NCBI GenBank assembly: GCA_028286865.1 | Contig: JAQBQU010000016.1 | Coordinates: 1-62,358, forward strand | Source of the DNA: Candidatus Kaiserbacteria bacterium | GTDB lineage: Bacteria; Patescibacteriota; Minisyncoccia; Phycocordibacterales; UBA2100 | Direction: 5' to 3' | DNA: 62,358 nucleotides | Shown here: one piece after another, positions 45,417 to 62,358 of the stretch | Layout: the number at the start of each line of letters is the position of its first letter | How positions within the stretch are numbered: position 1 is the stretch's first letter | Translations under genes and position numbers: made by a program | The notes under the pieces: generated by a model | Told to the model about the DNA's origin: nothing | What the model saw: the letters and a program-made list of their open reading frames with translations, nothing else | Database searches by the model: none

Positions 45417-45472
45417 GTGACGCTATCCCCATACGGTAATGGCTGGGCGCACGGTCGCGGTATAGTTCATGA

Positions 45473-46102: not shown

Positions 46103-46112
46103 GTATCACGTG

Positions 46113-46151: not shown

Positions 46152-46256
46152 TGCACCGATTTCCGCTACATTACTCATACGCCTAAGGGTTTCCGCCTGT
46201 GTGGCGGCTTCTTTTTTAAACCGTTCTACTATTATTTAGCCCGCTAATACATCTAT

Positions 46257-48398
46257 ATGTCACGCGATTATCCACTCGAAAAAGTACGTAACTTCGGTAT
46301 CGTTGCCCACGTTGACGCGGGCAAGACGACCACGTCCGAGCGCATCCTTTACTACACGGGAGAGAGTCACAAGATCGGTGAAGTGCATGATGGCAACACG
46401 GTCACTGACTGGATGGAACAAGAGCGCGAACGCGGCATCACCATCACCGCCGCCGCGATCACGTGTTTCTGGAACCCGTCGTATATGGGAGCTGACACCA
46501 CCAATAAGGTCCGCTTCAACGTGATCGATACTCCGGGACACATCGACTTCACCTCAGAAGTGAAGCGCTCGATGCGCGTGCTCGACGGCGCGGTCGTCGT
46601 TTTCGACGGCGTTGCCGGAGTGGAGCCGCAGTCAGAGACCAACTGGCGCTACGCTGAAGAAGCGGAAGTGCCCCGCATTTGCTATATCAACAAGCTCGAC
46701 CGCACCGGCGCGTCATTCGAGAAGTCATACGCATCGATCCTTGACCGTCTTTCGACGAAAGCGGTTCGCATGCAGATCCCGATCGGCGAAGAGGAGGGAT
46801 TTGAAGGTGTTATCGATCTTCTCGGCATGAAGGCCTACAAATTCGAAGGCGAAATGGGACGCAATGTGATCGCCTACGACATTCCTGCGCAATATCTCGA
46901 CGAAGCAAAGAAGTATCACACCGAGTTGGTGGAACGCATCGTCGAAAATGACGATGCGATCATGAGCGAGTTCTTGGAAGGAAAGGAAATTCCGTACGAG
47001 ACTCTCAAGAAGACACTCCGCGCAGCGGTCGTGCTGAACAAGATCTTCCCGGTCTACACCGGCTCATCCCTCAAGAACAAGGGCGTGCAGCTCGTGCTCG
47101 ATGCGGTCGTCGATTACCTCCCGTCTCCACTCGATCTTCCCGCTGCCAAGGGCATCAATCCTGATACAGGCGCGGAGGAGACACGTCCATCACTCGATGA
47201 CGGACCGTTCGCGGCGCTGGTCTTCAAGCTCCAGACCGACCCATTCGTGGGTGCGCTCACATTCTTCCGCGTCTATTCCGGATCGATCAATACGGGAGAT
47301 ACGGTCTACAATTCCGCCAACAACAAGCGAGAACGCATCGGCCGTATGGTGCGACTCCAGGCTGACAAGCGCGAAGAGATCAAGTCGGTATATGCCGGTG
47401 AGATCGCAGCGGTCGTCGGCATGAAGGAAGTGAAGATCGGTCACACGCTCTGTGATGCGGATCATCCGATCGCGCTTGAATCGATCGTTTTCCCGGAGCC
47501 GGTGGTCTCGATGCGCGTCGAGCCGAAGACAAAGGCCGACCAGGAGCGCATGGGCATTGCCCTCTCTAAGTTGAGCGACGAGGACCCTACGTTCCGTGTG
47601 CATTCCGACCCTGAAACAAATGAAACGATCATCTCGGGAATGGGAGAACTGCACCTCGACATCATCGTCGATCGTATGAAGCGCGAGTTCAACGTCGAAG
47701 CGACGACCGGCAAGCCGCAGGTCGCATTCCGCGAGACGATCCAAGGAACTGCCGATGTCGAATACAAACACATCAAGCAGACAGGTGGTCGTGGTCAGTA
47801 TGGTCACGTGAAGATCCGTGTGAAGCCACTCGAGGCATTGGTAGAAGGTGAGAAGATCAAGAACAATGTCGAACGAGAAGATCACTTCGAATTCATCAAC
47901 AGCATCAAGGGAGGAGTCATCCCGCAGGAATTCATTCAGCCGGTTAAGAAGGGCTTCAAGGAGGGAATGGAGCGCGGAGTGCTGGCCGGATTCCCTATGG
48001 TGGATGTGTCGGTCGAGCTTTACGACGGATCGTCCCACGACGTCGACTCTTCAGAGATCGCCTTCAAACTCGCCGCACTCAATGCGTTCCAGGATGGGAT
48101 GCGCAAGGCAAAGCCGGTCATTCTCGAGCCGATCATGAAGCTCGAGGTCGTCGTCCCGGAAAAGTTCATGGGTGATGTCACGGGTATGATCAACTCCAAG
48201 CGCGGTACCATCGAAGCGATGGGTGAGCGCGGACAGGCACGTGTCATCACAGCCAAGGTGCCGCTTTCGGAACTCTTCGGCTTTACGACACAGCTTCGCT
48301 CTCTCACAGAGGGCCGCGGCGTCCCGAACCTCGAGTTCTCGCACTACTCGGTGGTGCCACGTAACGTTCAGGACGAGATCATTGCGAGTCGTCAGTAG
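46257..48398 (+). CDS. fusA: elongation factor G
   Basis: 713 aa with GTPase motifs AHVDAGKTT, DTPGH and NKLD, plus EF-G domains II-V. Confidence 0.97.
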   Translation: MSRDYPLEKVRNFGIVAHVDAGKTTTSERILYYTGESHKIGEVHDGNTVTDWMEQERERGITITAAAITCFWNPSYMGADTTNKVRFNVIDTPGHIDFTSEVKRSMRVLDGAVVVFDGVAGVEPQSETNWRYAEEAEVPRICYINKLDRTGASFEKSYASILDRLSTKAVRMQIPIGEEEGFEGVIDLLGMKAYKFEGEMGRNVIAYDIPAQYLDEAKKYHTELVERIVENDDAIMSEFLEGKEIPYETLKKTLRAAVVLNKIFPVYTGSSLKNKGVQLVLDAVVDYLPSPLDLPAAKGINPDTGAEETRPSLDDGPFAALVFKLQTDPFVGALTFFRVYSGSINTGDTVYNSANNKRERIGRMVRLQADKREEIKSVYAGEIAAVVGMKEVKIGHTLCDADHPIALESIVFPEPVVSMRVEPKTKADQERMGIALSKLSDEDPTFRVHSDPETNETIISGMGELHLDIIVDRMKREFNVEATTGKPQVAFRETIQGTADVEYKHIKQTGGRGQYGHVKIRVKPLEALVEGEKIKNNVEREDHFEFINSIKGGVIPQEFIQPVKKGFKEGMERGVLAGFPMVDVSVELYDGSSHDVDSSEIAFKLAALNAFQDGMRKAKPVILEPIMKLEVVVPEKFMGDVTGMINSKRGTIEAMGERGQARVITAKVPLSELFGFTTQLRSLTEGRGVPNLEFSHYSVVPRNVQDEIIASRQ

Positions 48399-48416
48399 AT
48401 AAGCATTGGATGAAGA

Positions 48417-48444
48417 AAACCGCCGGTTCCAGCCGGCGGTTTTC
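48417..48444 (+). terminator. rho-independent terminator after fusA
   Basis: AAAACCGCCGG-ttcca-GCCGGCGGTTTT. Confidence 0.8.
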
Positions 48445-48530
48445 GTACATGAAGTTACTATCCACAACCGGTTCAGGAACGCTTCTTTTCCGTGTCATTC
48501 TAAGGTATTACGAGGTCACTCTTTTTATAT

Positions 48531-50195
48531 ATGTTCAAGCGAATCGCAGTTACAGGTCTCGGTCTAGCACTCCTTGCTACGCCATTCGTTGCCTCAGCGG
48601 ACCTTCTCTCCGACTTGCAGGCAAAACTGGTCGCATTACAGTCACAGCTCACTTCAGTGAATGCGAGTGCGGGCACCAACACGTCAGCGGCATGTCCGTC
48701 GCTGAATGCAGTGCTCTCCGTCGGTGCACGTGGCTCGGATGTTACGACCCTCCAGACGTTCCTCGTCGCACAGGGCTTCCTTTCATCTGATTCAGCGACC
48801 GGCTACTTTGGCCTACTCACGCAAGGTGCCGTGCAGCGATTTCAGGCGCAAGCAGGTATCGTGTCGTCCGGTAATCCGTTTACCACAGGATATGGCAGTG
48901 TCGGCCGTCTCACGAGAGAGGCGATCAGGAACATGTGTAAGGCTATTTCGACAAATCCTCCGGCCGCGCCGAATGTGACCTTTAGCGCTTCGCCTGCATC
49001 GGGCGCTGCACCGCTCAATGTCACCTTCACCGAAAGCGGACTCCCGGCAGGTACGTACCAAGTGAATTTCGGTGACAGCGCAAACGGCACGATCACCGTT
49101 CCGTCAATTATGTGTATTACGACTCCATGTAATCCCGGACCGCAATCCACTTCACACACCTACTCTCTCGCCGGCACCTATACCGTCACACTCAGCGGCA
49201 CTCCGTGTGCTTCGGGCGCAATGTGTGCGCAGGTAATTCGCACACTCGGCACCGCGACCATCACGGTCAGTGGCGCTGTTTCTCAAGCGGACACAACATT
49301 CACCGCCTCACCGACGTCGGGCACGGCACCACTCACCGTTTCATTTAGTGCAAGCGGCCCATCCGGAACCAACTTCAGCAGTATCAGTTATGGCGACGGC
49401 ACGAGCGGAAGTCTCAATGCGGCGCCCGTATGTGCAAGCTGCAATGCGGCCTCAAGTGCAAGTCATGTCTATGCTACAGCCGGCACGTATACGGTGACGC
49501 TCGGCTACATGCCGCCATGTGCTGTCGGTATGGCCTGCGCACAAGTCGTACAGACCAAGACCGTGACGATCACGGTCAATGCTCCCGCTTCTCAAGCGGA
49601 CACGGTATTCTCCGCCTCGCCGACCTCGGGCACGGCACCATTGAGTGTCGCGTTTAGCGCAACCGGCCCCTCAGGAACCAATTTCAGCAGCATCACCTTC
49701 GGTGATGGCACAAGCGGAAGTCTCAATGCTGCACCGGTCTGCGCGAGCTGCAATGCTTCGTCGGCTGCGAGCCATACTTACACCACCACCGGCACCTACA
49801 CCGCAACGCTCGGATACATGCCACCGTGCCCAAGCGGTATGGCATGTACACAAGTGATGCAGACCAAGACGGTTACAATTACGGTGAGTGGTTCGCAAAA
49901 TCCGACGATCGTAATGCCGACGTGCTCTGAAACATTCTCATCGTCGACTACCGGTACCGGGATCTATTTCACCGATTCTTGGACATCATCGACGGACGTC
50001 ACCTCAATGACACTCACCATCACCCGAGGCGGTCAGGTGGTCGTCGGCCCCGGCCCGTCGGGAGTCAATGGCTCATACCAAACGAAATGGGATGTCGCGG
50101 GTACGTACCAGTACAACAGAAAAATAAATAGCGGCAATGCATATGCCGAATGCAACGCGACCCTTGTCGTACAACAAATGTCGCAGACGCAGTAG
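48531..50195 (+). CDS. secreted PG_binding_1 + three PKD-like module protein
   Basis: 554 aa. It has a signal peptide MFKRIAVTGLGLALLATPFVASA and a peptidoglycan-binding-like repeat (GSDVTTLQTFLVAQGFL...GYFGLLTQGAVQRFQ). Three F(S/T)ASP(A/T)SG(A/T)APL(N/T/S)V(T/S/A)F modules carry conserved Cys pairs. Confidence 0.85.
   Translation: MFKRIAVTGLGLALLATPFVASADLLSDLQAKLVALQSQLTSVNASAGTNTSAACPSLNAVLSVGARGSDVTTLQTFLVAQGFLSSDSATGYFGLLTQGAVQRFQAQAGIVSSGNPFTTGYGSVGRLTREAIRNMCKAISTNPPAAPNVTFSASPASGAAPLNVTFTESGLPAGTYQVNFGDSANGTITVPSIMCITTPCNPGPQSTSHTYSLAGTYTVTLSGTPCASGAMCAQVIRTLGTATITVSGAVSQADTTFTASPTSGTAPLTVSFSASGPSGTNFSSISYGDGTSGSLNAAPVCASCNAASSASHVYATAGTYTVTLGYMPPCAVGMACAQVVQTKTVTITVNAPASQADTVFSASPTSGTAPLSVAFSATGPSGTNFSSITFGDGTSGSLNAAPVCASCNASSAASHTYTTTGTYTATLGYMPPCPSGMACTQVMQTKTVTITVSGSQNPTIVMPTCSETFSSSTTGTGIYFTDSWTSSTDVTSMTLTITRGGQVVVGPGPSGVNGSYQTKWDVAGTYQYNRKINSGNAYAECNATLVVQQMSQTQ
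49281..49898 (+). repeat. 2 x 309-nt (103-aa) in-frame tandem repeat
   Basis: The units start at TCTCAAGCGG, at 49281 and 49590. The translated units are highly similar (SQADT(T/V)F(T/S)ASPTSGTAPL...QTKTVTITV). Confidence 0.85.
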
Positions 50196-50225
50196 CCTTC
50201 AAAAAAATACGATACAATAAACCCT

Positions 50226-53200
50226 ATGCGATATGCATGGGGTTTATTGTTTGCCCTTTTTCTCCTCCCGACTTTTGCCGCGGCGGATACGTGCCCCGCG
50301 CTCTCGTTGGGCTCGCGCGGCGCAAGCGTAACAGCAGTACAAAAGATACTGTACGCTGCGTACGCGAACTTTCCTCTGCCCACGGGCACGTTTGATAGCA
50401 CGACTCAAACGGCGCTCAAGCAGTGGCAAAAGGAACACGGCATTTCACAGACAGGCACTGTCGGTCCTCTCACGGGGGCGGCGATGAAGCTCTGTGTTGC
50501 TGCATCAACGGTCGTTGCAAATCCGGTCCCTACCACTACCGCTGTCAGTGGCACCCGCACCCTCTCCCGAGGGCTCTCGGGTTCTGATGTCGTGGCACTC
50601 CAGCAGTTCCTCATTTCGCAGAACCTCCTTGCGGCGGGGAACGCGACCGGCTTCTTCGGCGCGCTCACCGAAGCGGCCGTGCAATCATTCCAGCGCGCCC
50701 GCAACATCGTCTCTACGGGCAGTCCTGCCACGACCGGATACGGTGCAGTGGGCCCGAAGACACGGGGAGTGATCGCGAACTCTACATCGACCACAACGAT
50801 TACAACGAATCCGACTACCGGTCCTACCACTACCTCCGTCCCCCCGGTGACGACTCCTGTTATTACAACAGTTCAACCTATCATTACCACTGTTCCGGTC
50901 AGCGGCCCTACGGCATCTCTCACCGGAAACGGTGCTTCATCACTGACCGTCAGAGTCGGCGATACCGTGAATTTTGTATGGTCATCCAATAGTGGTGCAT
51001 CCGCTCGTTCTACCTATGCAACTGAAGTTCCGAATGTCTGCGGCGCAAGCGGCAGCGGTCCGTTCCCGTGGGTGGCCAATACGCTCTCGGGAACAATTTC
51101 AAGCGGAGCCATTCCTGCGTGCTGGGCAGGGCACACATCGACCGGCACATACATAGTCACAGACAGCGCAGGGAGGTCCGCCTCTGCGAGCTTTGTTCTA
51201 AAAGTGTTGTCTGCGGACAGTGGCCCCACCGCCACACTTACCGCCAACGGATCGAACTCGCTTGCCGTCCATGTGGGCGACTCGATCAATTATGCGTGGT
51301 CATCGACCGGCGGCACTTCTGCGAGATCCACATACACGACCGAATCGCCCAATGTGTGCGGTCAGACCGGCAGCGGTCCGTTCCCGTGGGTCGTCAATAC
51401 ACTCTCCGGCACGCTCTCAAGTGGCGCGATACCGACATGCTGGGGCGGACACACAGTGACCGAAACGTTCACAGTGACCGACAGTGCGGGGCGCACGGCC
51501 TCTTCGGTGGTTACGGCGAACGTCCTGTCCGCGGGTCCCGTTGCATCAGTGTTCGAAGGCGACAGCATCACCGTGAATAACGACGCGACCTCATGGCCCA
51601 ACAAGCTCATGACGATCAACAGCCGTCTTGGCGGAGGTGTACTGTATAATTTTGCGCAAAATGGTGACAACGCGGCCGCTATGGTCGGCGAGTATACGAC
51701 GGAAGCACATCAGAAAAAACCGGCAGCAGGCGGCGAGGCGTATTTCTTCCTCTTCGCCGGCGGCAACGACATCCTCGGTGACGTAACCGCTGCGGCTACG
51801 TATGCGAATTTGAAAACGTTGTGGGCCAATGCGCGGGCCGACGGATACAGGGTCGTGGCTTTCACGATCATGAATCGTACGACATTTACCGGCAGCAAGG
51901 CGACGCAGTGGGCAGCGCTCAACAACCTTATCTTGAGCGATCGTACGCTGTACGATTATGTCGTCCGCGCGGACCTTGCGTTGCCGGATCCGACCAGTAG
52001 CACCAATTTCGCCGACGGCACCCATCCGACCCCGGCCGGCTATGCGGTGATAGCCAATGCGGTCAATAACGCACTTACCGCCTCCGTCGACCTCAAAGGC
52101 AACGGTTCTGACGGCCCCGTGAATGCAAAAGTAGGCGACAGTGTGACCTGGTCATGGACATCTCAAGGGGTCACCTCGTGTGCACAAAGTTATACGGGCA
52201 CGAGTACGGGAGCGCCCGCAGATTGGGGCACATCCGGAACGAAGGTCATTGGTCCGTACCCATCATCCGCCGCGGGCTCCTACACGATCCTCATGGCCTG
52301 TACGACATCGAGCGGAGGTACCGTATCGGACACCGTGCAGCTCAACGTGGCTGCGGCCACGAACGCATCTTGTACGGTGGGCGGCGTCACGATCGCGAGC
52401 GGCGCTTCACAAACATTCTACTCATCGCAGAGCGTCGCATCGGGCTCCTCATGTTCCGCTGTGTCTCAAACCCGCACCTGCACCAACGGCGTACTTTCCG
52501 GTAGTGCTTCATATCAATACGCATCGTGTTCCGCCGCAACTGCTACTGCCGGATGGGATAACGTAAAGACCGCGGTCGGTAACTGCTCCGCTGCGACCGG
52601 CAACGGCTCGACGGACGACACGGCGGCGATGCAATGTCACTTGAACTACATGTACAACACCTACGGCGGCGGCATCGTGTACGTCCCGCCGGGGACATAC
52701 CGCGTCTCCGGCGGCGGCCTTACGATCCAGGGGGGTACTGAACTCATCGGGGAAGGCAAAACGGTCTCTGTCATCAAAACGACCTCGGATTCGCCCGTTC
52801 TCACCTTCGACACCACATGCCGAAGCTATCCGGCTGCGAGTAAGTTGTCCATATATGGATACGAAAATGCCGCCGCGACCTCGGACACGGTCACGATCGG
52901 TTTCAACTGCCCGGTAAATCTCCGTGATGACGATATCCGCTACGGACACAACGGTCTCACCAACAGAGGAGTCGACGGGTTTATCGCGGACACATCAATA
53001 TTCGGCTTCAACGCCTCGGTCGTGTCCTATGGCGCAAATTGGTACCTACGCGACACCTTCGCTTCCGTCGGCGGGTACAGCTCCGCCTACGGTTTTTATC
53101 AGGGCGTATCGCAAGGCGGACTTCAGGAAAATCATCTGACACAAACGACGATCACCGGCAATCAGACATACGGCGTCGTCATTGCCGATGCAGATACCAT

Positions 53201-54272
53201 CAATTCGATCACCTCGTTCTCCGAATCTGTTATTGACACACCCGTCTTGGTCACCAGGGCTCGATGGACGAGTTTCACTAATTCTCGCGTCGCCTCGATA
53301 AGCGGTAATTCCGGGGTCATAACGAACACCGGTTCATACTCCGTAACCCCGATACCGACGGGTACTGCGACACCGCTGGTGCCGGCCGGAGGTTCGACCG
53401 CGGGCGCATGGGTGAATGTGAAAGATCCGGTAGGGAGTTGTGCTGCCGCGCTCGGCAACGGCACCGATGAGACGGCGGCGATCCAGTGTCATCTCACATA
53501 TATGTACCAAACGTACGGGAGCGGTGTCGTCTTTTTCCCGCCCGGCACGTACCGCGTATCGGGCGGCGGTGTCTTCGTACAAGGAGGTGTGCAGATCATC
53601 GGTTCCGGAGGGAACGTCACCTCATTCGTGACCTCTGTAGACTCGACGGTCATCACGTTCGATTCTGCTTCTTGCAATCGTCCTGCAATGGCGAGCGTAT
53701 TCGTCCTTGGCTACGAGAATGAATCTGCTCAAAATCCCGTGGTCACGGTCGGAGAGAACTGCGCGGCAACGATCCGCGACGCCTACATCTGGATGGGCGG
53801 ATATGCGCTCTACAACAAAGGCGTCGGCGGGGTCGTGGAGAACTCATTTATCAACGGATACACGGCGGGCGTCGCATCACTCGGGTCGAACTGGTACGTG
53901 CGCGACAAACTCGACAGTTCGGCATCCCACACCACATACTCGTTCTTGCAGGGATCCCCCGCCCCTGGCGTATCGAGCGCCACCAACTATCTCCTGATGC
54001 CTGATTTTTCCGGAAACTTTTCCTACAGCGTTGCTATCATCGACCCCACGCATACGGCGGTCACCGTGATAGACGGAGGGGTGACCTCTTCTCCGTTCCT
54101 CATAAACGGAGGGGCATCTACAAGCATCATCAACAGCGAACTCGGCGGCGCATTCACGCTCAACAACGGCGGCAACGTGTCGTTCATCGGCTCGTACGGC
54201 TTCTCGCCGTTGAATATCGTCGCCAATGGCAGCAATGTGACCGGCAATACCAACCACAACATTTCGTTCTAG
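50226..54272 (+). CDS. giant secreted multidomain protein: 2x PG_binding_1, 2x Ig-like repeat, SGNH/GDSL hydrolase, 4-Cys module, 2x pectate-lyase-3-like beta-helix
   Basis: 1348 aa with a signal peptide and two PG-binding repeats. GDSIT...GGNDI...DGTHPTPAGY is the SGNH block. Two DDTAAMQCHLNYMYNTYGGGIVYVPPGTYRVSGG-type beta-helix caps are present. TACAAT lies 7 nt before the ATG. Confidence 0.85.
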   Translation: MRYAWGLLFALFLLPTFAAADTCPALSLGSRGASVTAVQKILYAAYANFPLPTGTFDSTTQTALKQWQKEHGISQTGTVGPLTGAAMKLCVAASTVVANPVPTTTAVSGTRTLSRGLSGSDVVALQQFLISQNLLAAGNATGFFGALTEAAVQSFQRARNIVSTGSPATTGYGAVGPKTRGVIANSTSTTTITTNPTTGPTTTSVPPVTTPVITTVQPIITTVPVSGPTASLTGNGASSLTVRVGDTVNFVWSSNSGASARSTYATEVPNVCGASGSGPFPWVANTLSGTISSGAIPACWAGHTSTGTYIVTDSAGRSASASFVLKVLSADSGPTATLTANGSNSLAVHVGDSINYAWSSTGGTSARSTYTTESPNVCGQTGSGPFPWVVNTLSGTLSSGAIPTCWGGHTVTETFTVTDSAGRTASSVVTANVLSAGPVASVFEGDSITVNNDATSWPNKLMTINSRLGGGVLYNFAQNGDNAAAMVGEYTTEAHQKKPAAGGEAYFFLFAGGNDILGDVTAAATYANLKTLWANARADGYRVVAFTIMNRTTFTGSKATQWAALNNLILSDRTLYDYVVRADLALPDPTSSTNFADGTHPTPAGYAVIANAVNNALTASVDLKGNGSDGPVNAKVGDSVTWSWTSQGVTSCAQSYTGTSTGAPADWGTSGTKVIGPYPSSAAGSYTILMACTTSSGGTVSDTVQLNVAAATNASCTVGGVTIASGASQTFYSSQSVASGSSCSAVSQTRTCTNGVLSGSASYQYASCSAATATAGWDNVKTAVGNCSAATGNGSTDDTAAMQCHLNYMYNTYGGGIVYVPPGTYRVSGGGLTIQGGTELIGEGKTVSVIKTTSDSPVLTFDTTCRSYPAASKLSIYGYENAAATSDTVTIGFNCPVNLRDDDIRYGHNGLTNRGVDGFIADTSIFGFNASVVSYGANWYLRDTFASVGGYSSAYGFYQGVSQGGLQENHLTQTTITGNQTYGVVIADADTINSITSFSESVIDTPVLVTRARWTSFTNSRVASISGNSGVITNTGSYSVTPIPTGTATPLVPAGGSTAGAWVNVKDPVGSCAAALGNGTDETAAIQCHLTYMYQTYGSGVVFFPPGTYRVSGGGVFVQGGVQIIGSGGNVTSFVTSVDSTVITFDSASCNRPAMASVFVLGYENESAQNPVVTVGENCAATIRDAYIWMGGYALYNKGVGGVVENSFINGYTAGVASLGSNWYVRDKLDSSASHTTYSFLQGSPAPGVSSATNYLLMPDFSGNFSYSVAIIDPTHTAVTVIDGGVTSSPFLINGGASTSIINSELGGAFTLNNGGNVSFIGSYGFSPLNIVANGSNVTGNTNHNISF
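50904..51539 (+). repeat. 2 x 318-nt (106-aa) in-frame tandem repeat
   Basis: The units start at GPTASLTGNG (50904) and GPTATLTANG (51222). Both contain ...ARSTY.TE.PNVCG..GSGPFPWV.NTLSGT.SSGAIP.CW.GHT... Confidence 0.85.
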
Positions 54273-54321
54273 AGACAGAGCTCACTTATTCAGTCGGGTC
54301 TGCCCCAAGCAGCCAAAAGCG

Positions 54322-54356
54322 AAAGTCCCGGGCCATTGATGGCCCGGGACTTTTCT
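54322..54356. terminator. bidirectional terminator AAAGTCCCGGGCC-attgat-GGCCCGGGACTTT
   Basis: 13-bp stem with A/T flanks between convergent genes. Confidence 0.8.
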
Positions 54357-54610
54357 TAGAACATCGACTTCTCATCCGCTATGGCGGTGCCGGAGTAATT
54401 CACCACGCGCGCCGGGATGAAATAGGCGGTGAGCCCAAGAACGTCCTTTGCTGCCGCGTCCCTGAGCTTCTGTTCGATCGGAGGCAGTTCTTTGCCCGAG
54501 TAGGGGCCTATAAACATCGTCCCCCCGATCAGTCGTTGCGTCAGGCCGAGACTTGAAACGATCTTATCCTGCTCGCCTCCGGCGATAAGGATCAGTGTTT
54601 TTTCCGACAT
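54356..54610 (-). CDS. hypothetical small protein
   Basis: 84 aa from MSEKTLILIAGGEQD. An AGGAG SD lies 9 nt upstream of ATG 54610. Confidence 0.55.
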   Translation of the reverse strand: MSEKTLILIAGGEQDKIVSSLGLTQRLIGGTMFIGPYSGKELPPIEQKLRDAAAKDVLGLTAYFIPARVVNYSGTAIADEKSMF

Positions 54611-54801
54611 GCTCGTGGACTCCTGTGAGAGATTGTTCAATCTGAATAATAACATCTATTGAGTGATTTGTCAATTATATTTAGGATGACGAAAGATACG
54701 CTCTATAAACAACCGAGTTATGCAAATTGCGCCGACGAACCATAGTCACAGGTTTTTCAAAAAAACGCAGAACAGCGTTTCCTGTGCGCTAGAATATACG
54801 A

Positions 54802-55284
54802 ATGACACATCGACAAGAACTATTGCTTGGCATCGTCGCGATACTTATTCTCATCGCCGCGATCTACCTCTTCGGTCACCCGTCCCAAAAAATAAGGGCC
54901 AGATTCAATACAAAGAGCATCGATCTCCCGGTGCCGACGGGCCCGAGCGCCACAGAGGCAGCGCAATTGAAAGCGAGTACCGGATTTCAGGAGCTTGTTT
55001 CGTATACCGATGGGGGATTTGCCCCCGGGAAGCTTTCGGTCAAGAAAGGCGACACGGTCCGATTCACGAATAGTTCAAAAGCAGATCTCTGGGTCGCCGC
55101 GACCGGGGCATCGGGCTCGGTATATCCCGGAAAGACCGTCGATGAATGCGGGCAAAGTGCCTTCGATTCGTGCCGCGTCATCGCGCCCGGAGGATTCTGG
55201 GAATTCACTTTCGACACTGCAGGCACGTGGGGATATCAGAATAACCGTGATACTGCCATGACAGGCATGATCGTTATCCAATGA
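54802..55284 (+). CDS. membrane-anchored cupredoxin-like domain protein
   Basis: 160 aa. A TM helix is followed by GKLSVKKGDTVRFTNSSKADLWVAA...WEFTFDTAGTWGYQN, a cupredoxin/EfeO-N-like pattern. I saw no obvious Cu ligand set. TAGAAT lies 6 nt before the ATG. Confidence 0.65.
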   Translation: MTHRQELLLGIVAILILIAAIYLFGHPSQKIRARFNTKSIDLPVPTGPSATEAAQLKASTGFQELVSYTDGGFAPGKLSVKKGDTVRFTNSSKADLWVAATGASGSVYPGKTVDECGQSAFDSCRVIAPGGFWEFTFDTAGTWGYQNNRDTAMTGMIVIQ

Positions 55285-57122
55285 AAAAGACTCTACTTGT
55301 CCTCCTGCTTCTGATCGTCCCGCAGTTCGTATTCGCAGGCGCTGCTTACTACACAACGCCCGGATCGTATGGTTTTACCGTGCCTGCATACGGTACGCTT
55401 ACCGTTCAAGTATGGGGCGGAGGAGGAGGCGGGTCGTATTGGAATGACGCGCAATCAGGAACGTATTCGGCATTCGATTCAGTCGTCGGATACGGAGGTG
55501 TCGGTCCCCACGGTGTTGTCGGATATATCTCATGTATGCCATGTGCGCAGTTTGAGCCGGGAGGGCCGGGCGGCGGCGCATCAGGTGGTGACATAAACAT
55601 TGCTGGAGACAACGGTCAGGATGGGCCCGCCAGTAGTGGCGGCGCGAGTCCGTATGGCGGCAGCGGTGGCGCTTTTGGAGGCAGAGGTGCGCAGGGCGCT
55701 CCGGGAGGCGCTCCGGGAGGCGGAGGAAGCGGTGCGTCGCCCGCGCAAGGTGGATTTGTTATATATGGTGGCGGTGGCGGTGGCGGTGGATTTTCCCAAA
55801 AGACCTATTCATCCGGAGCACTTCCTCCTGCCGTTACGATCGTAGTTGGTAGCGGTGGAGCCGGTAGCCCAACCTATTATGGCGATCCTACTAGAGGTGG
55901 TGATGGAGCCTCCGGCGCCGTATATGTATATTGGACCGACCTGCCCCCCGCCTCCTGCGTCGTCTCCGTATCTCCGAATCCCGCTTCCTATTCATCGAGT
56001 GGAACGGCGACGCTCTCGTGGTCTTCGAGCAATGCAGATTCGTGGACCTATATAAATAATGTGGGATATCTCACCGGACCCGGTAGCTCATTCCAAGTCG
56101 CCCGTACCGCTTCCACCGATTACTCCTGCTACGCACAAGGTTCAGGCGGCTCCGACGGCTGGCACGCGTATACCTTCACCGTGACCCCTCCGCAACCCAC
56201 CCTCACCATCTCTGCCGATTCCACTTCGATCAACACCGGACAAACGACTGTCATTCACTCGACATATGCAGCCGGGGCGGGGGATTCGATGCAAGACACT
56301 GCATTCAATGAAGTACCGCCCGGAAGCGCGGAAGTGAATCTGCGAGCGGTCGGTGTCGCATACGGCACGTCCCCCGATACCCAGTACAACTACACGTTCA
56401 CACCATCGACTGCCGGAACATATGTTTTCAAACCGTATGCGATCACGTCGGCGTATAATTCATGGAATACATACGGACAGAGTGTTTCGGTCACCGTTAC
56501 TGCAAATGCTCCCTGCACACTCAACGGCGTCACTATGCAAAGCGGCGAATCTCACACCTTCTACAGCTCCCAAACGTCTCCGACCGGCCAGGTCTGCTCA
56601 GCCATATCTCAAACAAGAACGTGCACCAATGGCACACTCTCCGGAAGCTCCTCATATCAATACAGCTCCTGCACGTGCGCACCGCTGTACTCCTGCTCGG
56701 GCAACAATGTGACATACACCAACGGAAGCTGCTCCACCTCCACCGTCGCATCCTGCGTATCTCCGCAGTACTGCTCTCCCGGGACTCCTACATGTGTGAC
56801 GCCGCCACCAACCTTCACGAGCGGTACCTCCACATACAACGGTGTCGTCTTCAACTCCACCGGACATATCATCGCAAAGCCCCAGCTCCTCTCTCCCGGT
56901 GCTACCGCTCGCATCTACTGGAACATCTCAAACGTATCCTCATGCACCACGACCGGAAGCAACGGCGACTCATGGACCGGCGCATCCTCCGGCTCGGCAG
57001 GGAAGGCCACCGCCGCTATCACCCAGCAGACCACGTTCACGCTGCGCTGTACCGGACTCGATGCGTCACATATCAATGAGAGTGCGACGGTGAATGTTAT
57101 TCCGGTGTTTCAGGAGCAGTGA
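55281..57122 (+). CDS. secreted glycine-rich-domain protein with Ig-like modules and a 4-Cys module
   Basis: 613 aa with signal peptide MKKTLLVLLLLIVPQFVFA. A ~190-aa Gly-rich block (VWGGGGGGS...GGGGGGGGF...GGDGASGAVYVYW) is followed by Ig-like segments. ATGA overlap with the upstream gene. Confidence 0.8.
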   Translation: MKKTLLVLLLLIVPQFVFAGAAYYTTPGSYGFTVPAYGTLTVQVWGGGGGGSYWNDAQSGTYSAFDSVVGYGGVGPHGVVGYISCMPCAQFEPGGPGGGASGGDINIAGDNGQDGPASSGGASPYGGSGGAFGGRGAQGAPGGAPGGGGSGASPAQGGFVIYGGGGGGGGFSQKTYSSGALPPAVTIVVGSGGAGSPTYYGDPTRGGDGASGAVYVYWTDLPPASCVVSVSPNPASYSSSGTATLSWSSSNADSWTYINNVGYLTGPGSSFQVARTASTDYSCYAQGSGGSDGWHAYTFTVTPPQPTLTISADSTSINTGQTTVIHSTYAAGAGDSMQDTAFNEVPPGSAEVNLRAVGVAYGTSPDTQYNYTFTPSTAGTYVFKPYAITSAYNSWNTYGQSVSVTVTANAPCTLNGVTMQSGESHTFYSSQTSPTGQVCSAISQTRTCTNGTLSGSSSYQYSSCTCAPLYSCSGNNVTYTNGSCSTSTVASCVSPQYCSPGTPTCVTPPPTFTSGTSTYNGVVFNSTGHIIAKPQLLSPGATARIYWNISNVSSCTTTGSNGDSWTGASSGSAGKATAAITQQTTFTLRCTGLDASHINESATVNVIPVFQEQ

Positions 57123-57186
57123 TGGTGAGTGAGAGATTTCCCCACATCATCCCTGACCTTTCTCGCGGGCATGTCACAATAGGGAC

Positions 57187-58167
57187 GTGAATACCTCTCG
57201 CTCACTCGTTCTCTCGGTCACACTTCTTGCCGGGCTGCTACTGAGTGGCTCCGCCTCCGCCTGGACCGGCCCCACCGCCTCACCGCCGAGTGCCAACGTG
57301 TCAGCTCCCCTCAACGTCAGCACCGCCGACCAGCTCAAGCACGGATGGATCGGACTCGATTCGCTCTCGATCTTCGATCATATGATCATCTCCGGTGCCG
57401 TGAACAGTCCGAACACCGTCCGCTACCTCAACTTCGGATCTACCTGGGACGCAGCAGGATATGGTATCCGTGACAATGCGGGTACTTTGGAATTTAAAAA
57501 CTCCGGCGGCTCATGGACATCGCTGCAGTCGACCATCTACAACTACTGCGCGGACGAGGGATGTGGTGGTAGCACTCCGGACTGGACGAATATCACCGGC
57601 AAGCCCTTCAATTGGGCAGGACAGACCGGCCAGCCGTCATGGCTCTGGGGATCCAATGACGGAGTTGATTATTATGTGTGGAACCCAAGCAATTTCAATG
57701 TTAACTACGCGAACTCGGCAGGTGCTGTCCCGTGGTCGGGCGTCTCGGGCAAACCCTTCAACTGGAATGGCCAAAGCGGCCAGCCGTCATGGCTCTGGGG
57801 ATCCAATGACGGCGCCAATTACTATGTCTGGAATCCGAGCAATTTCAACGTGGCTTCTGTAGGAGGCTATGGTGCCGAAGGATTGCTCAAGTACGACACA
57901 TGGGGGAGAGGATCAACATACTATGCATCCAATGGTGATTCATATCTTGCGTGGCGAGGACAGTGGCTCTCCACCATTGTGGACAATCTTCCCGGACGGC
58001 TGGGCGGTCAGTTCTGGGTGGGTCAAGTCGAGGGCGGGTACAACGCCTGTCCTTCAGGATCTATCATGGTCGGGACCAATCTGTGGCTCAGCTATTATTT
58101 TGGCGGAGAGCCTGAAATGCATATAACTCCATACACAAACGTATTGTGCCAATGGATCAGCCAATAA
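57187..58167 (+). CDS. secreted fibre-like protein, paralog A
   Basis: 326 aa with GTG start (TGtCACAAT-N6) and a signal peptide ending SASA/WTGPTASPPS. The conserved N-domain is shared with paralog B. There are two 50-aa W..(I/V)(T/S)GKPFNW.GQ.GQPSWLWGSNDG..YYVWNPSNFNV repeats. Confidence 0.8.
   Translation: MNTSRSLVLSVTLLAGLLLSGSASAWTGPTASPPSANVSAPLNVSTADQLKHGWIGLDSLSIFDHMIISGAVNSPNTVRYLNFGSTWDAAGYGIRDNAGTLEFKNSGGSWTSLQSTIYNYCADEGCGGSTPDWTNITGKPFNWAGQTGQPSWLWGSNDGVDYYVWNPSNFNVNYANSAGAVPWSGVSGKPFNWNGQSGQPSWLWGSNDGANYYVWNPSNFNVASVGGYGAEGLLKYDTWGRGSTYYASNGDSYLAWRGQWLSTIVDNLPGRLGGQFWVGQVEGGYNACPSGSIMVGTNLWLSYYFGGEPEMHITPYTNVLCQWISQ
57583..57882 (+). repeat. 2 x 150-nt in-frame tandem repeat inside fibre paralog A
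   Basis: A 35-nt identical core GGCCAGCCGTCATGGCTCTGGGGATCCAATGACGG lies at 57628-57662 and 57778-57812. Confidence 0.85.
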
Positions 58168-58168
58168 T

Positions 58169-58735
58169 ATGAAAAGCGAACCAATTATTCAGATATTGAT
58201 TGCTGCCGTTGTCCTACTCGCGCTCGGCGAAGCCTATCTCGTGCACGACAATGCCCAATTGCGACACGTCGCTTCGGTAGCCGGCATCGGGCAATTTCCG
58301 ACAGGAGTCACTACGAGCCCTATAACTGGCTCGAGCACTGTGGCGGGCCCGATCGCTCCCTCGAATATATTGGCGACAATTGTAGGTACCATTACAGCCA
58401 ACAACGATTCGCAGTTTATTCTCAGCGCCGGTATTGTCACCAAAACCATATCAATAGACTCCTCCACGACTATCGTAATGCAAGGGAAACTGAAAGATTC
58501 CGCTCAATATGCCGATGATATGGAAGCCTTTCGTGCGTCATCGATGAAATTAGCAGAGGATCTGTCGAAGAACAGAGCTGCGCTTCAGTCTTTGATCGCA
58601 CCATCATCCCATGTCGAGACGAGTATTCATGCGTCGCAGATCACGGCCGGGAGTATCGCTTCCGTCTATTACACGATCGTCGGCGGCGAAGCGCATGCAT
58701 TCAAAATAATTGTGATGTCTGCCGGCACTAACTGA
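58169..58735 (+). CDS. small membrane-anchored partner protein, paralog A
   Basis: 188 aa with an N-terminal TM helix (IIQILIAAVVLLALGEAYL). The ATG lies 1 nt after the fibre gene's TAA (CAATAATATG junction). Confidence 0.7.
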   Translation: MKSEPIIQILIAAVVLLALGEAYLVHDNAQLRHVASVAGIGQFPTGVTTSPITGSSTVAGPIAPSNILATIVGTITANNDSQFILSAGIVTKTISIDSSTTIVMQGKLKDSAQYADDMEAFRASSMKLAEDLSKNRAALQSLIAPSSHVETSIHASQITAGSIASVYYTIVGGEAHAFKIIVMSAGTN

Positions 58736-58817
58736 GCTGCTTGAGATGGAAATACCGCGGTCACTCCTTCTCCCCATGAGAGCGAATTTGTCAGAAAACG
58801 AGATGTATAATTGCCTA

Positions 58818-59981
58818 GTGAAGAAAGAATTATCTAAGAAGATATTTTCACTCCTCATCGCTGGCTTAATCGGGAGCGTTGCGACCTCCGCCTCCGCCTG
58901 GACCGGCCCCACCGCCTCACCGCCAAGCGGCAACGTCGCGGCCCCGCTGAACGTCAGTACCGCCGACCAGCTCAAGCACGGATGGATCGGACTCGACTCG
59001 ATGTCCATCCTCAATCACCTCATCATCTCCGGCGCAGCAAACACTCCCAACACCGTCCGCTACCTCAATTTCGGTGCGACCTGGGACGCTGCGGGATACG
59101 GTATCCGCGACAATGCCGGCACCCTTGAGTTCAAGAACTCGGGCGGTACGTGGGCGAGCATTCAGAGTACGGTGAATACGCTGGTGGGTAATGGCGGGCA
59201 GTGGACCACCTCCGGATCAAACATTTATTACAACACCGGGAATGTGGGGGTGGGGACGGCGAGTCCGACGTACGCACTGACGGTGACCAGCGGTAACAAA
59301 GCAATCTCCGTGGGAGAAGGGACGGGTAGTGATGCAGATGGTCGGCTGGTCATGGGGTGGACCTCGGCTTCAGGAGCAACACCCGCGTGGGCCAATATCA
59401 GCGCATATCAAGGCGGCTATAGAAAGCTGCAGATCGAAGCGAGTCCGCTGGTTCTTAATAGCAATGGCAGTAACGTGGGCATCGGAACTATGAATCCTGC
59501 AGGAAGATTGGAATCAGACTCAAACGGTGCGGGAGTGTGGGCCGGCATGTTCAACTACGGCGCGGGAGCACCTTCCGGCGCCTATGGAATTTGGACCTAT
59601 GGCACCTCATACGCACTCTATGCGCAGGGCCCAGTCGTAACCACCGGCAATGTGAGTGTAGGCAGTGCCGTTCTTGGAACCAATGGCGATCTCTACATGC
59701 CGTGGAAGGGTCAATGGCTCTCCACGGTCTTGAGTAATCTCCCGGGCAGGCTCGGGGGTCAGTTCTGGGTCGCAGCGTATGCATGGAACGGTATTAGCGA
59801 TCCGAATTGGACGGGGCGTCAGGGATACCTAGACATGTGTCCGTCAGGATCTATTGTGGTGGGGACGTATCAGGAAAATACACAAATTCCTGTCTCGGAT
59901 CCAAATGACGGATACACGAGAGGTCACGCGGCTGTCGACGCCCAGTATAATCAGGTTCTCTGTCAATGGATCACTCAATAA
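58818..59981 (+). CDS. secreted fibre-like protein, paralog B
   Basis: 387 aa from GTG 58818 (TATAAT 58806-58811 + N6) with signal peptide (M)KKELSKKIFSLLIAGLIGSVATSASA/WTGPTASPPS. The N-terminal ~95 aa are near-identical to paralog A and the C-terminal half is different. The track's longer ORF starts at 58746. Confidence 0.78.
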   Translation: MKKELSKKIFSLLIAGLIGSVATSASAWTGPTASPPSGNVAAPLNVSTADQLKHGWIGLDSMSILNHLIISGAANTPNTVRYLNFGATWDAAGYGIRDNAGTLEFKNSGGTWASIQSTVNTLVGNGGQWTTSGSNIYYNTGNVGVGTASPTYALTVTSGNKAISVGEGTGSDADGRLVMGWTSASGATPAWANISAYQGGYRKLQIEASPLVLNSNGSNVGIGTMNPAGRLESDSNGAGVWAGMFNYGAGAPSGAYGIWTYGTSYALYAQGPVVTTGNVSVGSAVLGTNGDLYMPWKGQWLSTVLSNLPGRLGGQFWVAAYAWNGISDPNWTGRQGYLDMCPSGSIVVGTYQENTQIPVSDPNDGYTRGHAAVDAQYNQVLCQWITQ

Positions 59982-59982
59982 T

Positions 59983-60525
59983 ATGCGCTCTCGTACCAAC
60001 ATTCTCATAAGCTTTCTCATCGCAGCAGTCATTGTGCTCGCGATCGCGCAGGTATATACCATCCGCAAACTTTCAAATAACGCAGCGCAAAGTGTCATGC
60101 AGCCAGCACATCCGGGAGGAGTGGCTACACAAGCGGTATCAGCTGTACCTCCGTCGACGATCATGATGCCGATATCAGGTACCGTTATGTCCGCCGACTC
60201 GTCCCATATCGTAATAGGGAATGCGTCTTCGACCAGAGCGTTATCGATCGATCCATCGACCGTTATTGTGCAATTCGGCGCGCTCAAGGATTCTCAACAG
60301 CAGGCCGCTGATATGGAGGCATTCAGGCTTTCTTCAAATGAGCTTGCCAAAGATCCCGAGAAAAATAAATTATTGCTCCAAACGCTTGTGGCGCCGTCAC
60401 CGTTTAAGGAGACAAAGATCGCCGCTTCCGATATAAAGCCGGGTGCAGAGATCGTTGCGTATACCTTTATTCAAGGCGGGTCGGTATATGCCGTTCGAGT
60501 GAATGTATTGTCGGTCGCTCAATGA
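59983..60525 (+). CDS. small membrane-anchored partner protein, paralog B
   Basis: 180 aa from MRSRTNILISFLIAAVIVLAIAQVY. It has the same CAATAATATG junction as cassette A and C-terminal similarity (DMEAFR.SS..LA.D..KN...LQ.L.APS). Confidence 0.7.
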   Translation: MRSRTNILISFLIAAVIVLAIAQVYTIRKLSNNAAQSVMQPAHPGGVATQAVSAVPPSTIMMPISGTVMSADSSHIVIGNASSTRALSIDPSTVIVQFGALKDSQQQAADMEAFRLSSNELAKDPEKNKLLLQTLVAPSPFKETKIAASDIKPGAEIVAYTFIQGGSVYAVRVNVLSVAQ

Positions 60526-60536
60526 GTAGCGCCCAA

Positions 60537-60574
60537 AAGAAAAGCTCCGGCTTGTGGGCCGGAGCTTTTCTTTT
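60537..60574. terminator. bidirectional terminator (AGCTCCGGC...GCCGGAGCT)
   Basis: 9-bp GC-rich stem with A/T-run flanks between the island and rplT. Confidence 0.8.
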
Positions 60575-60579
60575 GATAT

Positions 60580-61818: not shown

Positions 61819-62358
61819 CTATTTGGTAGCTGAGGACGGACTCAGAAAGTGTATTGCCCAGGTCAATGCTGCCGCGAGGTCCGAAAGGAGCTTCATGACC
61901 CCGTTGGTGGATGGCGAACTGTACGTAGAAGGGCCGGTATAGCTTAGGTCGGTCGAGGTAAAGGTCTGCTGCGAGGTGAGCGGCTGGATAGACGCGATGG
62001 TGCCCGGATTTATCGAGGTCGATGCGCTCGCCGCAGAGATGCCTGTAATGTCCGAGGTATTGCTGTTAAGGACGACCGAGATCGGAGTGGCGGTCGCGGA
62101 GTTGCTCGCCGTGAATGAGACCGGATTGGCAAATGCGTTCAGGAGTTCCTCGGTCGTACTGGTATGCGTCGTAGACGTCGATGGATTGGTCACGAGGGTC
62201 GATGTGGCAGGCGTGGTTGCGATATTGGCGCAACTGTTGCCGTTGCAGCCGTTGGTGCATGTCTGGTACACCTGAGTGGTGCACGAGGTCGTCTGGTAGT
62301 ACATGACGTTGTTGGTGCAGGAGAATTGCGGGGAACAAATACCGCCGAGCGCGGTGGT
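61819..62358 (-). CDS. secreted Thr/Ser-rich protein, 5'-truncated by the window edge
   Basis: The frame stays open upstream of the first Met to the window end (TTALGGICSPQFSCTNNV-MYYQTTSCTTQVYQTCTNGCNGNSC...). The Cys-rich segment resembles the island's 4-Cys module. Confidence 0.6.
   Translation of the reverse strand, partial: TTALGGICSPQFSCTNNVMYYQTTSCTTQVYQTCTNGCNGNSCANIATTPATSTLVTNPSTSTTHTSTTEELLNAFANPVSFTASNSATATPISVVLNSNTSDITGISAASASTSINPGTIASIQPLTSQQTFTSTDLSYTGPSTYSSPSTNGVMKLLSDLAAALTWAIHFLSPSSATK

Follow-up and report, generated by a model that had tools for sequence, protein, structure and literature searches.

A hypervariable set of exported surface proteins with phage tail-fibre modules at a chromosomal slot of a Candidatus Kaiserbacteria bacterium, with a proposed role in envelope binding

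Here we describe a locus of nine open reading frames (ORFs), G1 to G9, found at positions 48531-60525 of contig JAQBQU010000016.1 of a Candidatus Kaiserbacteria bacterium. The contig was analysed along 62,358 nt, the stretch that we refer to as the window and on which all coordinates are given. With moderate confidence, we propose that this locus is a chromosomal, non-phage and hypervariable set of Sec-exported surface proteins, standing side by side as modules rather than building one machine, and that it serves in the binding of cell envelopes. The fibre-like proteins encoded in the locus would bind the envelope of another cell, which we infer to be that of a host, while two of its large products, G1 and G2, would act as wall-bound glycan enzymes.

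Results

Organization and borders of the locus

G1 and G2 are large exported proteins with peptidoglycan (PG)-binding domains, G3 is a small ORF on the minus strand, G4 and G5 form a pair, G6 and G8 are fibre-like proteins (fibres, hereafter) and G7 and G9 are the small anchored proteins encoded directly behind them (partners). The locus is flanked on its left by the EF-G gene (fusA, 46257-48398) and on its right by rplT-rpmI-infC (minus strand, from 60580), and both of its borders are bidirectional terminators, as had been claimed in a first-pass annotation of this DNA. The intrinsic terminator that follows fusA (48415-48446, GAAAACCGCCGG-ttccag-CCGGCGGTTTTC) folds at -24.9 kcal/mol on the plus strand and -22.5 kcal/mol on the minus strand (z of -6.2 and -5.4 versus shuffles), and the one at the right border, which is common to rplT (60534-60575), folds at -32.6 and -31.6 kcal/mol on the two strands (z of -7.6 and -6.7). 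Both hairpins have A and T runs on each side, and none of 200 shuffles reached their fold energy.

Eight of the nine genes are on the plus strand and, in agreement with the same annotation, each of the eight products carries an export signal or an anchor, as read from the N-termini: AxA-type signal peptides in G1, G2, G5, G6 and G8, and single N-terminal transmembrane (TM) helices as anchors in G4, G7 and G9. The spacing of the genes suggests two plus-strand units, G1-G2 and G4-G9. The GC content of the island (0.54-0.58) is similar to that of the rest of the window, and no additional copies of its modules were found elsewhere in these 62 kb. The island contains no capsid, portal, terminase, tail or integrase gene and no att feature, and a PHROGs scan of its proteins gave no phage structural match, only matches of the PG-binding repeats to endolysin families. 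Together with the housekeeping flanks and the use of the same slot in relatives (see below), this upholds the earlier view that the locus is not a prophage fragment. Searches with Pfam, NCBIfam and PADLOC found no toxin domain in the island proteins, and none of the PADLOC models matched any of the nine.

The same chromosomal slot in related genomes

The gap that follows fusA, normally a fusA-tuf gap, is filled in seven or more related genomes by 2-8 exported genes of the same families, in differing combinations. The EF-G proteins of four of these loci (L005, L013, L014 and L016) are 82-87% identical to that of the window. L005 reads fusA, G4, G5, a minus-strand ORF, a PG-binding protein of 653 aa, a protein of 1121 aa, G4, a G5-like gene and tuf; L013 reads fusA, a 600-aa protein with the C-terminal module of G5 (C-module, described below), a 317-aa protein, a 129-aa TM protein, a fibre, a partner, a C-module protein and tuf; L014 reads fusA, a 145-aa protein, a minus-strand ORF of 370 aa, a 724-aa protein, a fibre ending in Peptidase_S74 (S74), two TM proteins and tuf; and L016 reads fusA, a G1-like PG-binding protein of 622 aa, a C-module protein, a fibre and tuf. 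The slot is likewise present in the P0197 locus (fusA, 158 aa, 204 aa, G5, a PG-binding and PKD protein, tuf) and the P0212 locus (fusA, 173 aa, G5, tuf), in which the small genes ahead of G5 are known by their length alone. The left flank of P0212, consisting of a CMAS methyltransferase, a UDG and a 209-aa protein, matches that of the window. The tuf-proximal end of the slot was also found in L017/L033, L037 and L039, and G1-like PG-binding proteins, with or without PKD repeats, occupy the slot in both L016 and the P0197 locus. Those relatives that bear names are metagenome-assembled genomes (MAGs) of Candidatus Kaiserbacteria, Paceibacterota and the 'Patescibacteria group'.

Because the same families recombine in the slot, the locus is conserved in position and fluid in content, and is not a fixed apparatus. 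Judged by gene order, the surface-protein cluster is a lineage-wide occupant of the fusA-tuf gap, whose contents are shuffled among a limited number of families. The first-pass annotation had regarded the island as a dedicated apparatus and had set linkage of the genes in related genomes as a test. The families do recur in the slot and are linked elsewhere too, which sustains part of that view, while the differing combinations of 2-8 genes between fusA and tuf, in which the nine are not conserved as a set, do not; nor do the nine genes encode any ATPase, secretion or assembly machinery. The genes in the slot also diverge, by sequence comparison, far faster than their flanks, with G5 homologs being 40-42% identical versus 86% for the flanking EF-G and 99% for L20.

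In the window itself tuf is absent and the cluster abuts rplT-rpmI-infC. An ORF at 12269-13441 was considered as the tuf of the window and rejected, as it encodes a trypsin-like peptidase and not EF-Tu. In L004, where L20 is 99% identical and the flank shows ~80% DNA identity, a G5 homolog (42%) lies at the same rplT junction, and so we take the arrangement in the window to be a rearranged version of the fusA-tuf locus, which suggests that a rearrangement breakpoint lies at the end of the surface-protein locus.

Fibres G6 and G8

G6 (57187-58167, plus strand) is a fibre of 326 aa with a signal peptide, followed by an N-module (57262-57516), two W..I.GKP / GQPSWLWGSNDG repeats (57580-57858) and a two-Cys knob (57934-58164). 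The second fibre, G8 (58746-59981, plus strand, 411 aa), was given a start at 58776 by the gene caller and likely begins at 58776 or 58803. It harbors an N-module (58899-59153) and a knob (59685-59978) as well, connected by a shaft that differs from that of G6 and carries IYYNTGNVGVGT-type motifs. The two fibres are 42% identical (E-value 8e-76), sharing the N-module of ~95 aa and the C-terminal domain of ~80 aa and differing in their middles, and their partners, G7 and G9, are 39% identical (5e-34), bearing out the earlier description of a duplicated cassette of a fibre and an anchored partner. At the DNA level, the N-modules of G6 (57249-57516) and G8 (58886-59153) are 83% identical over 268 nt, with the rest being much more diverged, a pattern that suggests gene conversion or strong constraint.

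A clustered database yielded 506 homologs of G6, most of which have only the N-module in common with it, their other ends being Peptidase_S74, collagen repeats, or glycine-rich or small Cys-rich domains. Only a few of these homologs bear names, which are 'tail fiber domain-containing protein' in Paceibacterota and 'hep Hag family' in Kaiserbacteria. Many of the N-module homologs carry Peptidase_S74 (PF13884), of which neither G6 nor G8 shows a match. In line with the phage-fibre repertoire noted at first pass, amino acids 141-222 of G6 (the GQPSWLWGSNDG..YVWNPSNF repeat) are 70% identical to a tail fibre of Ochrobactrum phage vB_OspM_OC, amino acids 63-179 are 30% identical to a tail fibre of Sinorhizobium phage PBC5, and the YLNFG..GYGIRDNAGTLEFKNSGG (LEFKNSGG) motif was found within large fibre or spike ORFs of three IMG/VR contigs. 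This similarity covers parts of the protein only, and searches of 50,697 phage genomes and of 72,556 plasmids detected neither the full-length fibre, nor its N-terminal start, nor the knob. On the strength of these alignments, parts of G6 are phage-derived, and the fibres are mosaics of phage tail-fibre modules placed behind Sec signal peptides. Sequence and profile searches of the PDB with G6 and with the fibre alignment returned nothing meaningful; a weak match of the alignment profile to hepatitis C virus E2 (0.0085) was taken as chance. A 2612-aa protein of an uncultured bacterium (L025, 3-7841) contains at least 5 copies of the LEFKNSGG-containing module, and so this motif can also be an internal repeat in giant proteins.

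An alignment of the knob (n=19 sequences) revealed a conserved scaffold, gD.Y....G.W.S followed by GGQF-W, CPxGSxMxG and LCQWIN, which is broken by two loops of about 2-30 and 5-35 residues. By its alignment, this is the pattern of a binding tip and not of an enzyme, and the knob (about 50-90 aa) matched no toxin or enzyme family in Pfam, NCBIfam and PDB searches. A diversity-generating retroelement was considered as the source of the variation and discarded, there being no template/variable repeat pair in the island.

The partner family

G7 (58169-58735, plus strand, 188 aa) starts 1 nt after the stop of G6, and G9 (59983-60525, plus strand, 180 aa) 1 nt after the stop of G8, its real start being the ATG at 59983 rather than the TTG at 59854. 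In a word-indexed homology search, G7 retrieved only itself, whereas an exhaustive HMMER search of 1.84 billion cluster representatives brought out a small family, with 72 representatives at E<=0.001, almost all of which are 170-200 aa long. An AlphaFold2 (AF2) model of G7, built on an alignment of 33 sequences, reached a predicted local distance difference test score (pLDDT) of 86 and consists of a TM helix (amino acids 4-37), a disordered linker of ~30 aa and a predicted beta barrel resembling the oligonucleotide/oligosaccharide-binding (OB) fold, with an inserted helical hairpin. In Foldseek, the model best resembled generic small OB-like barrels (CusF, YgiW and PilY2) at E of about 0.01, with nothing at E<=0.001 and nothing viral in PDB and BFVD. 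The partners matched no Pfam, NCBIfam or PHROG family, a search of PDB sequences with their profile came out empty, and they are absent from the 50,697 phage genomes and from IMG/VR.

Fibre-partner linkage and its spread beyond the lineage

Gene contexts were collected from exact-protein look-ups, which retrieved no contig for G6 or for the protein P0008, from a genome scan with the fibre alignment and from a metagenome scan with a degenerate DNA pattern of the partner, which was validated on known loci and gave 10 metagenome matches, 8 true and 2 due to chance (L041 and L042). In all 14 of 14 distinct cassettes, the partner lies directly 3' of a fibre that ends in a C-[QR]-[WYQ]-I knob, usually with a gap of 1-3 nt. 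These cassettes comprise the two of the window and those of L001, L003, L010/L034, the P0003/P0123 contig, L013, L017/L033 and L035-L040. Fibres with other C-termini, including the S74 type, have no partner (L002, L014, L016 and L019).

S74-ending fibres are in two loci followed by TM-anchored proteins with a common FVSSE[LI][QR]FT[DE] motif (L014, 10768-11211, and L019, 11640-12599), which, judging by this motif and their position, may be a second kind of fibre-associated anchored protein. TM proteins behind S74-type fibres were also compared with the partners as possible remote homologs and set aside, hhalign giving probabilities of 3% and 0.3%.

The fibre N-module is found mainly in Patescibacteria (Kaiserbacteria, Paceibacterota, Saccharibacteria, Minisyncoccia and Portnoybacteria), and also in Hyphomicrobiaceae, Rhodospirillales, other Alphaproteobacteria, Omnitrophota and Altimarinota. 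L010, whose context is unrelated to the fusA slot and includes a DNA methylase, DUF3768 and RelB, holds a full G5 homolog, a C-module protein, a fibre, a partner and a G2-like PG-binding/4-Cys/PA14 protein. A complete cassette of fibre and partner is present in the chromosome of Bradyrhizobium sp. 200 (L003, CP064689, 566-587 kb), in a region of 54-56% GC whose other genes (TrwB/TraG, a Replic_Relax relaxase, ParE, DUF3768 and a 1130-aa S74 protein) mark it as probably an integrative conjugative element. DUF3768 thus flanks the cassette in both L003 and L010. In L001, the cassette adjoins a 1667-aa S74 protein and a 920-aa PG-binding/BNR protein. From the occurrences in Bradyrhizobium sp. 200 and L001, it follows that the cassette is mobile and not confined to episymbionts, as it occurs in Bradyrhizobium and other Alphaproteobacteria.

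The G4-G5 pair and the C-module

G4 (54802-55284, plus strand) is a protein of 160 aa with an N-terminal TM anchor and a cupredoxin-like domain, and G5 (55281-57122, plus strand, 613 aa) starts within an overlap with the stop of G4, the two genes being, in our reading, translationally coupled. The cupredoxin signal of G4 is weak (PF00127 at 0.006, 17.4 bits versus a cut-off of 21.2; TIGR02656 at 8e-6), and in an alignment to plastocyanin 1b3i the copper Cys and His positions are occupied by Gln, Asn and Arg, while the motifs CGQSxFDxC and FWEFTF are invariant in the G4 family. The earlier call of an anchored cupredoxin-like protein is thereby retained for the anchor and, on this similarity, for a plausible resemblance to the cupredoxin fold. 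Since its copper ligands are replaced, we take G4 for a binding or structural domain and not for an electron carrier.

G5 has an N-terminal signal peptide, a glycine-rich domain (55338-55937), an immunoglobulin (Ig)-like domain (55956-56192), a 4-Cys module (56514-56672) and the C-module (56676-57119), the last 150 aa of the protein, which is made up of a Cys-rich stalk and an Ig-like domain and ends in PVFQEQ, all on the plus strand; across the family, the C-module ends in P-[VI]-[FYW]-x-E. The N-terminal region opens with a Y..PG.Y.F.VP..V..L.V.V.GGGGGG pattern. G5 had been annotated as glycine-rich, and this was only partly confirmed by profiles: G5 alone falls below the cut-off for Gly_rich_2 (PF21722; 0.007, 16.8 bits versus 24.3), while 10 of 30 sequences in its family do match, with E-values down to 3.9e-15, and the ALK/LTK glycine-rich domain was detected in one (6e-10). 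Sequence and profile searches of the PDB with G5 and with the C-module alignment gave no meaningful match. The 4-Cys module is shared with G2, as had been noticed at first pass (G2 amino acids 669-791 versus G5 amino acids 377-488, 47% identity, 1.5e-14).

G4-G5 pairs recur twice in L005, after fusA (G4 53% and 39% identical), and in L039 a G4-like gene adjoins G5-like genes. A hidden Markov model (HMM) of the C-module matched a gene adjoining an N-module fibre in about 10 distinct loci (the window, L010/L034, L013, L014, L016, L017/L033, L019, L020, L039 and L040). Given these matches beside fibres across loci, we consider the C-module protein, the fibre and the partner (G5-G6-G7 in the window) to be a recurrent three-gene set. 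The comparison of gene neighbourhoods thus points to two conserved sub-modules in the locus: the G4-G5 pair, and the C-module protein with its fibre and partner.

A further group of anchored proteins, 317-343 aa in length, carries 3-4 GYAWSDxIGWI(S/D)xN repeats followed by a C-terminal module as in G5 (L010, 5529-6482; L013, 11816-12802; L016, 8884-9915; L017, 3585-4565; L019, 8872-9867). These proteins always adjoin fibres and have no Pfam or PDB match.

G1, G2 and G3

G1 (48531-50195, plus strand, 554 aa) consists of a signal peptide, a PG_binding_1 domain (1.4e-9; 48729-48875), three PKD repeats (9.5e-18; about 48978-49811), which are also detectable as a DNA repeat, and a C-terminal domain of ~100 aa that had no match in domain searches. 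G2 (50226-54272, plus strand) is a multidomain protein of 1348 aa in which a signal peptide is followed, on the same strand, by two PG_binding_1 domains (50316-50780; 3.8e-22), two Ig-like repeats (50889-51485), an SGNH/GDSL esterase (51558-52064; GDSL_2, 5.3e-14), an Ig-like domain with the 4-Cys module (52089-52538) and, in tandem, two putative beta-helix modules of pectate-lyase-like type (52563-53420 and 53448-54269; Pect-lyase_RHGA_epim, 8.6e-18). The PG-binding repeats of G1 and G2 are 56% identical. All of these Pfam matches agree with the domains (PG-binding, PKD, SGNH and beta-helix) first assigned to the two proteins by eye.

The SGNH domain of G2 scores 53.5 bits for PF13472 (cut-off 32.9) and retains blocks I, III and V (GDSIT at amino acid 445, GGNDI at 512 and DGTHP at 597), and so, with the GDS, GxND and DxxH blocks in place, the esterase is predicted to be probably active. 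The beta-helices match PF12708 in two stretches at 65.4 bits (cut-off 27), in an alignment limited to profile positions 9-74 of 213, and G2 also matches a putative pectin lyase in the PDB (7chu, 1.4e-5). Its domains make G2 a probable glycan-cleaving or glycan-de-acetylating enzyme that is tethered to the wall.

G3 (54356-54655, minus strand) measures 99 aa from its first ATG and the 84 aa originally reported for it only from the second, at 54610. It has no Pfam, NCBIfam, PHROG or PADLOC match and no homolog, by tblastn, in any of 42 fetched loci. A sigma-70-like promoter match (54646-54674, minus strand; TTGACA, 17 nt, TG-TATTAT; 11/12, a match to the consensus only) lies upstream of the 84-aa start, and G3 is divergent from G4. 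As far as its sequence tells, G3 is an orphan small cytoplasmic ORF whose role is doubtful.

Neighbouring genes in the window

The str operon of the window is also broken upstream of the locus (41908-48398), where three genes stand between rpsG and fusA: a CMAS-type methyltransferase (42431-43597), a UDG-family glycosylase (44751-45416) and a 209-aa protein without a Pfam match (45473-46102). The same insert is found in the P0212 locus, and L005 has the UDG gene alone. At the edge of the window, an ORF of 161 aa (61819-62304, minus strand) is 58-60% identical to the N-termini of two adjoining L004 genes, which encode Peptidase_M15_3 and VanY-like wall peptidases beside infC; from this likeness, the ORF probably represents the first part of a secreted peptidase of this kind, truncated where the window ends. 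The gene for the trypsin-like peptidase (12269-13441, minus strand) and one for a patatin-like phospholipase (11410-12225, plus strand) adjoin a tRNA-Pro/tRNA-Gly cluster and represent more candidate envelope-active enzymes, outside the island.

Discussion

The picture that we favour is of exported proteins that would be displayed at the cell surface and would bind an envelope, each family acting beside the others. As a mechanism, we suggest that G5-type proteins offer, in their C-terminal module, a docking site to the fibre N-module, that the knob binds a ligand on the envelope of another cell, that the partner acts outside the cytoplasm to fold and/or hold the knob-type fibre, as assembly proteins from separate genes do for the tail fibres of phages, and that swapping of modules among genomes alters what is bound. 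More speculatively, and as an idea that we advance tentatively and judge rather unlikely to hold in full, Paceibacteria-type ultrasmall bacteria might have turned phage receptor-binding modules to their own use, as a three-part surface fibre that depends on Sec (a base with a conserved docking module, a fibre with a hypervariable two-Cys knob and a new type of OB-fold chaperone or anchor, membrane-anchored and facing outwards), kept in the hypervariable fusA-tuf slot, which would set host recognition and would have been exchanged horizontally to Alphaproteobacteria.

Several observations weigh against these proposals. The nine genes are not conserved as a unit in relatives, and the AF2 monomer of G6 is poor (pLDDT 59), so that a trimeric fibre architecture stays putative. 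Neither in sequence nor in fold does the partner resemble a known fibre chaperone (Pfam, PHROGs, PDB and BFVD), and its identity, among seven pairs, tracks that of the fibre N-module (rho 0.62, p 0.003) and not that of the knob (rho 0.10), a pattern that fits an N-module anchor, or plain phylogeny, better than a knob-specific chaperone. In addition, the cassette stands without a C-module protein in L001 and in the Bradyrhizobium mobile element, and a fibre exported by Sec would, in a diderm, be left in the periplasm.

The main alternative is that the locus serves the cell's own envelope, with G5 and the fibres as abundant structural parts of its surface layer (S-layer-like or fibrillar), G1 and G2 acting as autolysin-type enzymes in wall maintenance, and variability serving to evade phages or grazers rather than to recognise a host. 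A location between fusA and tuf, which both rank among the most highly expressed genes, is conserved across the lineage and fits such a coat; however, a strong terminator separates fusA from the island, and so co-expression with fusA is not implied. The minimal locus, a 173-aa gene and a G5 homolog (P0212), hints at a core surface protein that is always needed, PG_binding_1 is typical of enzymes that act on the producer's own wall, and the fast divergence relative to the flanks is that expected of exposed surface antigens. What leads us to consider this explanation unlikely, if still deserving of attention, is the phage-type receptor-binding architecture with its hypervariable loops, which indicates a foreign ligand, together with the presence of fibre cassettes on mobile elements of unrelated bacteria. 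Those same cassettes could instead encode a toxin and its immunity protein, the fibre being a contact-dependent or secreted bacteriocin with an envelope-damaging knob and the anchored partner conferring immunity, as would suit the strict linkage of the small anchored gene 3' of one C-terminal domain (14/14), the tandem duplication of the cassette and the mobile-element contexts with ParE/RelB genes. Yet the knob, at about 50-90 aa, is a conserved scaffold with variable loops and resembles neither a toxin family nor an enzyme family. Partners are alike in length and in architecture, orphan arrays of immunity genes were not encountered, and neither PADLOC nor toxin-domain searches gave a match, and so we hold this to be improbable.

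Two further explanations turn on the phage origin of the modules. Receptor-binding modules displayed by the cell might block or mask the receptors of the lineage's phages, acting as an anti-phage decoy or exclusion system, for which the origin of the modules, the hypervariability of the locus and some of its mobile-element contexts could be cited. This we find very improbable, as it leaves the linkage to glycan-active enzymes and to G4-G5 unexplained, and the window has neither a PADLOC match among the island proteins nor defence-island neighbours. Alternatively, the island could be what remains of a degraded prophage or tailocin, namely its receptor-binding and lysis genes; the fibre repeats and the LEFKNSGG motif do occur in real phage fibres, the PG-binding repeats match endolysin PHROGs, and the combination of beta-helix and esterase is tailspike-like. 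This last explanation is largely refuted and barely credible: every large product, unlike the proteins of virions, bears a Sec signal peptide; capsid, portal, terminase, tail, integrase and att features are missing, with PHROGs matching the PG-binding repeats alone; fusA and rplT flank the island and the same slot is filled likewise in at least seven related genomes; the GC content is not anomalous; and neither the partner nor the full fibre occurs in 50,697 phage genomes or in IMG/VR.

If the envelope-binding reading is right, the locus supplies concrete candidates for how Patescibacteria other than Saccharibacteria find and hold a host. The variable loops of the knob could encode specificity, the partner family, which has no known relatives, could be the first extracytoplasmic fibre chaperone or anchor. 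The locus is also a case of phage receptor-binding modules put to use by cells by way of the general secretion pathway. As the fusA-tuf slot is readable in any MAG of the lineage, its gene content can be compared with ecology or host. Should the own-envelope explanation be true instead, the locus would still mark the main variable surface proteins of an uncultured lineage.

Comparison with known systems

A literature search, which left most subscription-journal papers outside its scope, returned no description of the partner family, the knob, the set of C-module protein, fibre and partner, the G4-G5 pair or the fusA-tuf slot, nor of tail-fibre-like proteins in Patescibacteria. Phage-like fibre domains in proteins of bacteria carry generic annotations. 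Within the scope of the search these five elements appear to be new, and the first-pass remark that no system of this composition had been described may hold for the fibre and partner set; it does not extend to secreted proteins with PG-binding, PKD and Ig-like domains, which are already known. In the parasitic Paceibacteria Ca. Yanofskyibacterium and Ca. Minisyncoccus, such proteins are highly expressed and have been suggested to take part in attachment to the host (PMC10936435). They come from the same bacterial class and have the same domain types as G1 and G2, a likeness by domain type and not by orthology, and the report contains no fibres, partners, G4-G5 pairs or fusA-tuf locus. Type IV pili are the established host-attachment device of Saccharibacteria (PMC12206443). 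If our inference on the fibres is right, both would be filamentous surface structures with which Patescibacteria recognise and bind partner cells; the proteins, however, are wholly different, the locus having no pilins, ATPases or secretins and relying on Sec export only.

Among domain families, Gly_rich_2 (PF21722) and the ALK/LTK glycine-rich domain (PF12810) match members of the G5 family, and G5 shares the glycine-rich start pattern, although at 16.8 bits it stays below the Gly_rich_2 cut-off of 24.3. Polymorphic toxin/immunity systems and colicin M-type immunity likewise couple a large exported protein tightly to a small anchored one, in a cassette that is duplicated and mobile, whereas the fibres have no toxin domain and their C-terminus is a single scaffold with variable loops rather than a series of alternating toxin domains. 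G2 joins an SGNH esterase to putative pectate-lyase-like beta-helices in the way of phage tailspikes and depolymerases, and differs from them in being Sec-exported and tethered by PG_binding_1 and in having two short tandem beta-helices, for which the Pfam match covers the N-terminal third only.

Phage fibres are folded either by an intramolecular chaperone (Peptidase_S74) or by a separate one matched to the tip, such as Tfa of lambda, P2 and Mu or gp38/gp57A of T4. Unlike phage tail fibres, G6 and G8 are equipped with Sec signal peptides and encoded among housekeeping genes of the chromosome, with no virion or baseplate, and, unlike the Tfa families, the partner is predicted to be membrane-anchored and outward-facing with an OB-like fold, and has no Tfa or PHROG similarity. 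What the fibres have in common with phage tail fibres and their Tfa/gp38 chaperones is a modular build, in which a conserved N-terminal part for attachment is followed by a shaft that can be exchanged and by a variable binding tip at the C-terminus, along with the shared repeat modules present in G6 and, as with Tfa and gp38, a small gene directly 3' of one type of tip, which the S74-type relatives do without.

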